DNA from: a virus
Lineage: Duplodnaviria; Caudoviricetes
DNA: 64,000 nucleotides
Virus record (IMG/VR): IMGVR_UViG_3300014205_000180
Span: 32,001-96,000 of that record
Reading direction: 5' to 3' (one strand)
Shown here: positions 1,601-2,567 of the stretch, piece after piece
Position numbering within the stretch: the first letter of the stretch is position 1
Layout of the letters: every line of letters begins with the position of its first letter
Translations under genes and position numbers: made by a program
Notes under the pieces: model-generated
Databases searched by the model: none
The model's input: only the letters and a program-made list of their open reading frames with translations
Told to the model about the DNA's origin: nothing

Positions 1601-1918
1601 TCAAAGCTTTTTAACTAAATTATCATAATAATACTTGCATGACCAATCATTCATCTTCTGAGATGGCTTTTTACCACGAATTTCAGAATAGAGAACAAGA
1701 GCAGAAGTGATTTCATTTTTGTTTCCTTGTCTGGTTGACATTAATGAACTGAGAGTGTCAATCTTTCTGGCTCTTGCAGCCTCTTTGATAGACTGACGAA
1801 GCAGGATTTGATCCCTGGACTTCAGTCTGATCAAATCACGAAGTTCTTTAATGATGCCTTTCCTGAGTTTTCGCAACTCAATCTCGGCATCAGTTAAAGT
1901 GGTAGTTGTGGTATTCAT
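1601..1918 (-). CDS. Basic helical hypothetical protein coupled to the Pth2-like gene
   Basis: ATG 1918 overlaps the upstream TGA (ATGA) and has an AGGAG SD; preferred over the track start at 1975. Contains LYSEIRGKK. Confidence 0.75.
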   Translation of the reverse strand: MNTTTTTLTDAEIELRKLRKGIIKELRDLIRLKSRDQILLRQSIKEAARARKIDTLSSLMSTRQGNKNEITSALVLYSEIRGKKPSQKMNDWSCKYYYDNLVKKL

Positions 1919-2268
1919 CTTACTACTCCTGGGATACGATGATCCCATAATTTCCATTTCTTGAAGAGCCGACACGGCTCACCAATCAATGGAATGGTGC
2001 AAAGTGAGGTTGCTTGGTTCCCAATATCCGGTTCTCTGAACAGGACACTAGGAATATTGAACAGTTCTAAACGTTGAAATTCTCGTAATAAAGACGATTC
2101 ATCAGCAACTTGGCATAAAACCAAGTTGCTGACACTAGACGGAGCAGCACCAAGTTTTTGCGTTAATAAACCAGATTCTTGCGCGGCATGTGCCGCTTGA
2201 ACCATCTGCTGCGCTAACGGCAGATCGGTTCTAACCAGAAGATAGGTATAAAATTCGTGCTAAAGCAT
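1915..2268 (-). CDS. Peptidyl-tRNA hydrolase type 2 (Pth2)-like protein with in-frame TAG at codon 3 (2260-2262)
   Basis: M L * H E F Y T Y L L V R T D L P L A Q Q M V Q A A H A A...LVL.V..E..L...FREPDIGNQATSLC matches the Pth2 pattern VRxDL...QxxHA...D..T; 117 codons with readthrough, the normal Pth2 size. Confidence 0.85.
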
Positions 2269-2274
2269 GGTATT

Positions 2275-2303
2275 ATTTTATAAAGTCGGGGCGGCTTTGT
2301 AAA
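2275..2303 (-). promoter_or_regulatory. Sigma70-type promoter giving a leaderless transcript of the Pth2-like gene
   Basis: TTTACA (2303-2298), 17-nt spacer, TAAAAT (2280-2275), then AATACC and ATG, so the A of ATG is 7 nt after the -10; no SD present. Confidence 0.7.
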
Positions 2304-2441
2304 TTATAGGATTTTGGCGAGGAAAATCCCGCCAATTACCCCAACAACAAGACCGCCACCAAAGCCAATATAGGTATTTGCATTGGTAATCAGTTTAACA
2401 AAAAATCCTTGAACCTGTTCAGTATTCTTGCCATCTGACAT
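2304..2441 (-). CDS. 45-aa small membrane protein (below ORF-track cutoff)
   Basis: MSDGKNTEQVQGFFVKLITNANTYIGFGGGLVVGVIGGIFLAKIL*; CAGGAG SD; C-terminal Gly-rich TM helix. Confidence 0.8.
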   Translation of the reverse strand: MSDGKNTEQVQGFFVKLITNANTYIGFGGGLVVGVIGGIFLAKIL

Positions 2442-2477
2442 GGTATATCTCCTGACCCTATATTTTCTTAGCAATAG

Positions 2478-2550
2478 CGCCTCTATGGTGAATCGAACAC
2501 CAATTGACGAGATTTTAGAAATCTCCGCATTACCATTATGCTATAGAGGC
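2478..2550 (-). tRNA. Amber suppressor tRNA, anticodon CUA
   Basis: GCCTCTA/TAGAGGC acceptor, GCAT-AATGGTA-ATGC D arm, GAGAT-TTCTAAA-ATCTC anticodon arm, TGGTG-TTCGATT-CACCA T arm, G73; all stems Watson-Crick; CCA not encoded. Confidence 0.93.
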
Positions 2551-2556
2551 ATGTTG

Positions 2557-2567
2557 TTTTATAACAA
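2557..2567 (-). promoter_or_regulatory. TTGTTATAAAA promoter-like motif upstream of the suppressor tRNA
   Basis: Same 11-mer precedes starts at 3877, 15749 and 49723. Confidence 0.6.

Follow-up and report, generated by a model that had tools for sequence, protein, structure and literature searches.

Which gene could an amber suppressor tRNA serve in a phage that otherwise uses UAG as a stop codon? This question is raised by a locus in a 64,000-nucleotide stretch of DNA (the window), which comprises bases 32001-96000 of a 150,988-bp IMG/VR viral contig, IMGVR_UViG_3300014205_000180 (estimated 60% complete; 33.6% G+C). The module of interest sits on the minus strand at 1601-2567, and positions without a locus prefix are window coordinates. 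In order, it consists of a promoter-like motif, a tRNA with a CUA anticodon (tRNA-CUA), an open reading frame (ORF) of 45 amino acids (aa), a gene for a protein resembling peptidyl-tRNA hydrolase 2 (Pth2) that is interrupted by TAG at its third codon, and a partner ORF that overlaps the latter by ATGA. An earlier note, made from the DNA letters alone, listed these parts in this order, and all are present. It also proposed that synthesis of the hydrolase depends on competition between the suppressor tRNA and release factor 1 (RF1) at the early TAG. This proposal gains support from homologs that keep the TAG, from their linkage to the tRNA, and from variants in which TGA is paired with a UCA anticodon; it withstood each refuting condition of that note to which the sequence data could be applied. 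The reading favored here is that the full-length Pth2-fold protein would be made only when the phage tRNA-CUA decodes the codon-3 UAG in competition with RF1. Its probability is put somewhat above even, and no higher, because every step beyond the sequence, including expression and charging of the tRNA and its decoding of this UAG, is inferred.

The Pth2-like gene (1915-2268, minus strand) begins ATG CTT TAG CAC GAA, with its start codon at 2266-2268 and the in-frame TAG at 2260-2262. If the TAG is read, the gene comprises 117 codons followed by TGA at 1917-1915. The tRNA lies 210 nt upstream on the same strand (2478-2550). The earlier description of this tRNA as perfect is borne out by ARAGORN (2477-2550) and by Rfam RF00005 (57.1 bits, E = 1e-10, full length). 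Its cloverleaf is canonical, with a 7-bp acceptor stem, U33, a TTCGA T-loop, and discriminator G, and CCA is not encoded. The anticodon loop is UUCUAAA, a form shared by 12 of 56 relatives, of which 38 have CUCUAAA. The only other tRNAs of the contig are Leu-CAA and Arg-UCU. Neither megablast of positions 1400-3000 nor blastn of the tRNA returned a match in the phage collection.

The phage otherwise uses the standard code. TAG terminates 46 of the 253 contig ORFs of at least 80 aa (~18%) and 11 of the 48 window ORFs of at least 150 aa. As noted earlier, it is the normal terminator of thyA (thymidylate synthase), folA (dihydrofolate reductase), and ligA (NAD-dependent DNA ligase); all three have full-length domain matches, and the Pfam match of thyA reaches the last residue. 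These terminators contradict genome-wide reassignment of TAG (code 15). The claim that this gene is the only one in the window with an internal TAG also held when the search was widened to the whole 151-kb contig. A codon-usage-scored scan across TAGs, which also took in every ATG-NNN-TAG near the tRNA, yielded no second instance in which a short start frame and a TAG precede a long coding frame that has no start of its own. Nor was a leader of the RGPP/RAPP type with an early TAG found in the 151-kb contig.

Is the in-frame TAG a defect? A close relative, L136, addresses this possibility. L136 is a 3.5-kb contig from another public run, and it encodes an 87%-identical protein for which the gene caller placed the start at Met22. 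It retains the tRNA-CUA, the 45-aa ORF, and ATG CTT TAG CAC. Between the TAG and Met22 lie 18 codons, in which the window and L136 differ by eight synonymous and two conservative changes (Leu to Ile and Ala to Val). Because 8 of 18 codons changed synonymously and two conservatively, this stretch is translated in frame and, judged by its substitutions, is under selection as protein in the frame of the early ATG. L136 also contains a 211-aa ORF (L136:128-763) between the tRNA-CUA and the 45-aa ORF, where the window has no such ORF; thus, even close relatives differ in the distance from tRNA to gene. Two downstream starts named in the earlier note were rejected. CTG 2238 is CTA in L136, and initiation at ATG 2205 would remove strand 1 (model residues 7-13) together with the invariant R13 and D15.

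A single in-frame stop resembles a pseudogene, and some database copies of the protein show Gln at this position. However, the TAG is kept in the independent assembly of L136, where the sequence is under purifying selection, and it is kept family-wide. The database Gln comes from gene calling with TAG read as Gln, and TAG terminates full-length genes as described above. A broken gene, an assembly error, or genome-wide code 15 is thus given a negligible probability. The database protein P0028 (L151:176-505) illustrates the artefact: it is written MTQTH..., and its DNA has TAG at the position of the Gln. The inference from database proteins that Gln stands at the TAG was therefore rejected. Other database proteins of the family are shortened, starting at an internal Met, Val, or Leu. 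The Pth2-like family is systematically mis-annotated in databases.

How widely is the early stop kept? By tblastn against cultured phages, the family is found in 25 jumbo-phage records at 31-43% identity. Their hosts are Cronobacter, Erwinia, Serratia, Yersinia, Pectobacterium, Xanthomonas, Stenotrophomonas, Ralstonia, and Acinetobacter. Many of these genes are unannotated or annotated from an internal start. The DNA of eight cultured phages was examined, and each has an early in-frame TAG. The gene begins ATG ACT TAG in ME3, ATG TTG TAG behind AAAGGAG in RsoM2USA, ATG GCA CAA TAG in GAP32, and ATG GCT CAC TAG in Kaldavass and XbC2. In XacN1 and RAS14 (ATG AAG TAG) and in Xoo-sp13 (ATG AAG AAG TAG), the domain is fused behind an HD domain, and the TAG stands at the head of the fusion. 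RAS14 has conserved residues between the TAG and the next possible start.

A larger sample was drawn from IMG/VR and comprises 81 family loci, each with 10 kb on both sides. In unfused genes, the TAG was counted as early where it was the first in-frame stop, at a distance of 8-29 codons (mostly 8-16) from the invariant Arg downstream, and where an ATG stood 1-8 codons ahead of it. As would be expected from the earlier proposal, homologs keep the stop: an early TAG is present in 55 of the 81 loci, namely 53 unfused genes and 2 HD fusions (TAG at codon 5). It is conserved across 31-52% protein identity and 33-66% G+C. After removal of duplicates, 49 distinct early-TAG loci remained. Of these, 27 have the TAG at codon 3, 10 at codon 4, and 7 at codon 5. 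The base that follows is A in 32 and G in 17, never C or T, whereas only 48% of ordinary TAG stops in the same loci are followed by a purine. A Shine-Dalgarno sequence precedes the ATG of the short frame in most of these loci. The early stops of the family are TAG in 55 cases, TGA in 2, and TAA in none, as against TAA 499, TGA 451, and TAG 206 for the ordinary long ORFs of the same loci. A control pattern (Shine-Dalgarno sequence and ATG, at most 8 codons, a stop, and an open frame of at least 90 codons) was sought on both strands of all loci (~1.4 Mb). It returned 42 TAG cases at the Pth2-like gene; everywhere else, it returned TAG 23, TGA 17, and TAA 14. The early TAG is a selected, non-random trait of the family. 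That it is so strictly early, with a purine after it, suggests that the site is tuned for readthrough.

The same loci bear on a different explanation, in which ATG-CTT-TAG is a two-codon upstream leader, the tRNA is a mere neighbor, and ribosomes produce the hydrolase by re-initiating or by starting at a non-canonical codon just downstream. The form does fit a two-codon minigene. In addition, an ATG lies four codons after the TAG in XacN1 and Xoo-sp13 and directly after it in L100 and L128, and GTG directly follows the TGA of locus L082. However, re-initiation needs no fixed frame, and the TAG is in frame with the domain in 49 of 49 distinct loci, the domain resuming in the zero frame directly after it. 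Nor does re-initiation need a particular stop, so the excess of TAG over its 18% share among ordinary stops would be left unaccounted for. No ATG, GTG, or TTG occurs between the TAG and strand 1 in 40 of the 49 loci. The codon after the TAG varies (ATT, AAT, AAC, GAA, GTA, ACT, and others), and the TGA variants pair with a tRNA-UCA. Taken together, a leader of this kind is quite improbable.

If the early stop is meant to be read, the tRNA should accompany it, as the earlier proposal implied. ARAGORN finds a tRNA-CUA within 10 kb in 45 of the 53 unfused TAG loci. The number rises to 46 of 53 with L110, whose tRNA-CUA (L110:13817-13891) has C instead of U at position 33 and was overlooked by ARAGORN; the tRNA-CUA of ME3 has the same CCCUAAA loop. 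In 44 of the 45, the tRNA is on the same strand as the gene, mostly 130-1150 nt upstream or 500-1200 nt downstream, and in many linked loci it is the only tRNA. Scanning of the tRNA regions of five cultured phages showed exactly one tRNA-CUA in each.

The most telling loci are two in which the early stop is opal. L074:9983 (nine sense codons, then TGA) and L082:9983 (M-E-S-TGA) share 36% identity. Both have a tRNA-UCA with an ordinary cloverleaf on the same strand, 4.6 kb and 0.3 kb upstream, respectively, and no tRNA-CUA. The stop and the anticodon thus covary (2 TGA/UCA versus 46 TAG/CUA; Fisher p ~9e-4). Although confined to two loci, this covariation is the strongest computational indication of decoding of the early stop by the tRNA. 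Queries with the L074 and L082 proteins and with a re-ordered alignment returned 20 new contigs and no further TGA case. A narrow query with the FHEPD-subfamily alignment returned one locus that was already known and no further TGA case. The suppressor tRNAs themselves are diverse. Their median pairwise identity is 60%, and where CCA is encoded, 18 have A, 7 have U, and 5 have G as the discriminator. Because of this diversity, the residue carried probably differs among them. Differing residues fit the placement of the stop in the unconserved tail before strand 1.

From these elements, the following course can be proposed. Ribosomes would start at the AUG at 2268 and reach the UAG at codon 3. 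Should host RF1 prevail there, no more than fMet-Leu would be released; if the phage tRNA-CUA decodes UAG, the full 117-aa protein would be made. Because readthrough in competition with RF1 would decide whether the full-length product appears, the amount of enzyme would be tied to the amount of working, charged suppressor tRNA. Such coupling may serve to set a dose, as a timer, or for feedback; the roles suggested in the earlier note, a timer or AND gate or a sensor of termination or tRNA stress that turns on tRNA rescue or anti-defense, are conjectural. The position of the stop suits such an arrangement. In the tail before strand 1, any inserted residue would be tolerated, and a failed attempt would cost only a dipeptide.

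What, then, would the readthrough product do? The earlier note called the gene Pth2-like, a label upheld by profile search and fold and left without support from Pfam. The 117-aa product has no Pfam match at E <= 0.1 and does not reach the gathering score of PF01981 (23 bits), and a PF01981 search of the contig found nothing. Two relatives also stay below this cut-off on the same Pfam PTH2 family, with 17.5 bits for P0076 and 19.2 bits for P0129. PHROGs gave only a weak match to a family of unknown function. By phmmer against 1.84 billion representatives, the product has 900 relatives, mostly of ~100 aa. A profile of 48 family sequences finds Pth2 24bt_A as the best solved structure (5e-7), and the next five matches, 1rzw, 2zv3, 1wn2, 1rlk, and Bit1 1q7s, are all Pth2 or Bit1 (E 0.003-0.17). 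The AlphaFold (AF2) model of the protein has a predicted local distance difference test score (pLDDT) of 93.3 and a predicted template modeling score (pTM) of 0.85. With this model, the top 13 Foldseek matches in the PDB are Pth2/Bit1 entries and the uncharacterized 2gax_A (Atu0240), with template modeling (TM) scores of 0.62-0.71. Beyond these, there is one weaker Pth2 entry (1rzw, TM 0.49), and the rest have TM <0.3.

At the level of residues, the agreement with Pth2 is partial. R13, D15, Q24, and H27 fit the shared VR.DL...Q..HA motif. An invariant D81 in an EPD segment takes the place of the Pth2 DAG segment, although HMMER puts it one column off the Asp of that segment. In Sulfolobus Pth2, the catalytic residues are the Lys of a GK motif and the Asp of the DAG motif. 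On the strength of model and profile, the 117-aa product is a divergent branch of the Pth2 fold. Most likely, the predicted enzyme cleaves ester bonds at tRNA 3' ends, with peptidyl- or N-acyl-aminoacyl-tRNA as the presumed substrate.

Several observations weigh against the proposed mechanism or against the assignment of the enzyme. The Lys-Lys pair of Pth2, which presumably includes the catalytic Lys, falls on Gln-Gln of the family in the HMMER alignment, just after a two-residue gap; enzymatic equivalence with Pth2 is presumptive. The window itself departs from the family rule, having C after the TAG and no Shine-Dalgarno sequence. In XacN1 and Xoo-sp13, the ATG four codons after the TAG makes a plain downstream start possible. 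The covariation of stop and anticodon would fall if two loci were discounted. Moreover, since TAG ends the essential thyA, folA, and ligA, a strong suppressor would be costly, and readthrough may be weak. Finally, proteins of one subfamily begin MKLYVLVR from a normal ATG; their genes lack the early stop but still have a tRNA-CUA nearby. It lies 10-25 nt behind the stop codon in L118, L144-L147, and L149, and a few hundred bases further on in L120 and L133. N-terminally extended forms beginning MK[DN]F also have no early stop and a tRNA-CUA 0.9-3 kb upstream. Because of these stop-less forms, the conserved core is the pair of Pth2-like protein and suppressor tRNA, with the early stop as one frequent wiring. 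As for L149, it was one of two loci returned by a scan of prokaryote genomes with one narrow pattern, the other being a chance-like match of 30 residues. L149 comes from a 427-kb contig of 32% G+C filed as a Thermoplasmatota metagenome-assembled genome; the contig has many tRNAs and looks like a jumbo phage.

The persistence of the pair without an early stop favors an explanation in which the tRNA does read the UAG but regulates nothing by doing so. An amber codon in a useful neighbor would then keep selection on the tRNA, or the hydrolase would clear side effects of suppression. The real job of the suppressor would be elsewhere: in C-terminal extensions, in other gated genes, or in countering a defense that targets tRNA. 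Other genes with TAG are indeed found in the vicinity. The Pth2-like gene of many phages is followed by, or fused to, an HD-domain gene, and this partner has an in-frame TAG in GAP32, Kaldavass, L084, L085, and L104. The codon concerned is codon 47 in GAP32 (L005:1812-2378) and Kaldavass (L007:1812-2378), lies mid-gene in L085 (~10306-10872), and is codon 3, as M-K-TAG or M-T-TAG, in L084:8489 and L104:10320. The annotation of GAP32 splits the HD gene into three small ORFs. A 78-aa family (…CKE.VFHFNK.HL.DP.IPMWVLK…) has TAG at codon 6-7 in L109:9262-9516 and L126:9289-9537, ~0.7 kb upstream of a Pth2-like gene that lacks the early stop. This family is a second candidate target of the suppressor tRNA. 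The diversity of the tRNAs, in both identity and discriminator (A, U, or G), is also in keeping with a job elsewhere. However, no other candidate target was found in the 151-kb contig, and the authors of the XacN1 genome found nothing behind its 18 amber stop codons. The strict early position and purine context further suggest tuning at the early TAG itself. Overall, this explanation is considered unlikely.

A pair that persists without the stop also leaves room for a protein that acts on tRNA-CUA or on the consequences of suppression. As a tentative extension of readthrough gating, with a chance of perhaps one in several, the module could be a self-referential homeostat or sentinel. The enzyme would have as its substrate its own gating tRNA or, more generally, tRNA 3' ends that are acylated or blocked. 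Readthrough of its UAG would then report the state of the charged-tRNA or RF1 pool and set the dose of an enzyme that repairs or clears tRNA ends. In other phages, it would act together with the HD partner. If so, the module would be a natural tRNA-operated feedback circuit, possibly directed against host toxins that modify tRNA ends.

The promoter-like elements of the window bear on how the gene would be expressed. The motif TTGTTATAAAA (core TATAAAATA) has four exact minus-strand copies in the window, at 2557-2567, 3882-3892, 15754-15764, and 49738-49748. The first is 6 nt before the first base of the tRNA, and two others stand 4 nt ahead of the start codons of ligA (ATG at 15749) and ORF 3877-2969. 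By motif comparison, CTTTATAAAATA (2274-2285, minus strand) has the same TATAAAA core as TTGTTATAAAA and ends 5 nt before the ATG of the Pth2-like gene. The shared TATAAAA(TA) core suggests one phage promoter type, giving transcripts with little or no leader. A Shine-Dalgarno sequence is absent from the Pth2-like gene, ligA, and ORF 3877-2969, and for this reason the Pth2-like mRNA may be leaderless or nearly so. Since the same TATAAAA core precedes both the tRNA and the gene, the earlier assertion that the two have different promoter types is unsupported. The sigma70-like promoter suggested for the gene does exist as TTTACA-17-TAAAAT (2303-2275), but such matches are no more frequent than in shuffled sequence (4 found, 5.4 expected).

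Public RNA libraries contain matching contigs. One from a sediment metatranscriptome (~95% identical) spans 2241-2522, taking in the TAG and the small ORF and reaching into the tRNA; a second from the same run spans 1907-2115. A contig from a wastewater RNA library (100% identical) spans 2315-2569. Because carry-over of DNA is possible, such contigs over the tRNA and the early TAG are at most a weak hint at expression.

The 45-aa membrane ORF (2304-2441, minus strand) begins with ATG at 2441 behind AGGAG, has a hydrophobic, Gly-rich C-terminal half, and contains no internal TAG. It is retained in the 87%-identical relative (L136:792-929); no Pfam or PHROG match was found, and it was not found in the other family loci. 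The 105-aa ORF (1601-1918, minus strand) overlaps the stop of the Pth2-like gene by ATGA. Its sole match is weak (E 0.008) and is to the ORF after the Pth2-like gene of L060; it is distinct from the HD-domain partner of other phages. The HD partner, an RF-1 domain, and Pfam PTH2 were not found in the contig, which holds only ~60% of a genome and so does not show their absence. The window also encodes an HD-type phosphohydrolase at 3926-4573 on the plus strand (phrog_19425, 7.6e-17), which is unrelated to that partner. In L097, L106, and L107, relatives of this phosphohydrolase with 31% identity are encoded ~9.5 kb upstream of the Pth2-like gene.

A readthrough-gated Pth2-like gene would be of interest in several respects. 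If the proposed mechanism is true, it would be a new form of natural control, in which translation of one gene is keyed to an adjoining dedicated tRNA in an otherwise standard-code genome. The family proteins in databases, which are shortened or show a false Gln in place of the TAG, call for an annotation correction. Several carriers are cultured phages with tractable hosts, among them GAP32 (Cronobacter), ME3 (Acinetobacter), RsoM2USA (Ralstonia), XacN1 (Xanthomonas), and Serratia phage BF. The earlier note knew of no description of such an arrangement, and the literature search, with most subscription journals outside it, likewise found none that pairs one early-amber gene with a suppressor tRNA.

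Parts of the arrangement do resemble known systems. The bar minigenes of phage lambda (AUG-AUA-stop) are a classic source of dipeptidyl-tRNA drop-off that is cleared by Pth; they are free-standing and toxic when Pth is low. The window likewise has a two-codon frame ending in a stop, and here such a frame heads a Pth-like gene. Unlike the free-standing bar minigenes, the short frame of the family is in frame with the hydrolase (49/49), TAG-ended and never TAA-ended, and paired with a cognate tRNA. A second parallel is prfB, the gene for release factor 2 (RF2), in which an early in-frame UGA is escaped by a +1 frameshift, at a slippery site with an internal Shine-Dalgarno sequence, and the product is the factor that reads this stop. 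Both prfB and the window gene concern the translation apparatus and are interrupted early by an in-frame stop, and the output of both depends (in the window gene, as proposed here) on competition at that stop. However, prfB uses a +1 frameshift and no special tRNA, whereas the window gene keeps the zero frame and has a dedicated tRNA alongside; feedback by its product is conjectural.

Jumbo phages are known to encode a Pth2 of archaeo-eukaryotic type (RaK2 ORF188; Iyer et al., 2021), which was proposed to free tRNAs in ribosome rescue (PMC7824862; PMC3622015). These papers mention no in-frame stop and no link to a suppressor tRNA. In comparison with the known jumbo-phage PTH2, the window family is a divergent branch that stays below the Pfam PTH2 cut-off. 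Besides its family copy (ORF364), XacN1 carries a gene separately annotated as peptidyl-tRNA hydrolase (ORF295).

Orphan suppressor tRNAs have been reported in standard-code phages. The XacN1 paper states that the target genes of the suppressor could not be identified, the RsoM2USA paper names no target, and the Summit paper states that none was identified. The tRNA-CUA of XacN1 and that of RsoM2USA belong to the module found here, so a conserved candidate target can now be named for both. It was overlooked because gene callers truncate or skip the gene; the frame of two or three codons before the TAG was never annotated and left the target invisible to these studies.

A further parallel is found in recoded phages (TAG read as Gln, code 15; crAss-like, Lak, and some jumbo phages). 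A phage tRNA-CUA reads UAG in phage genes there as well, and the code of the host is standard (PMC10879173; PMC13037316). That literature concerns genome-wide reassignment. In recoded phages, many genes are involved, often late or structural, with many in-frame TAGs, and TAG is no stop in the recoded genes. In the window module, by contrast, one small gene has one TAG at codon 3, and TAG still ends ~18% of genes. The arrangement may bear on how codes change, as a possible stepping stone to the reassignment of a stop codon across a whole genome.

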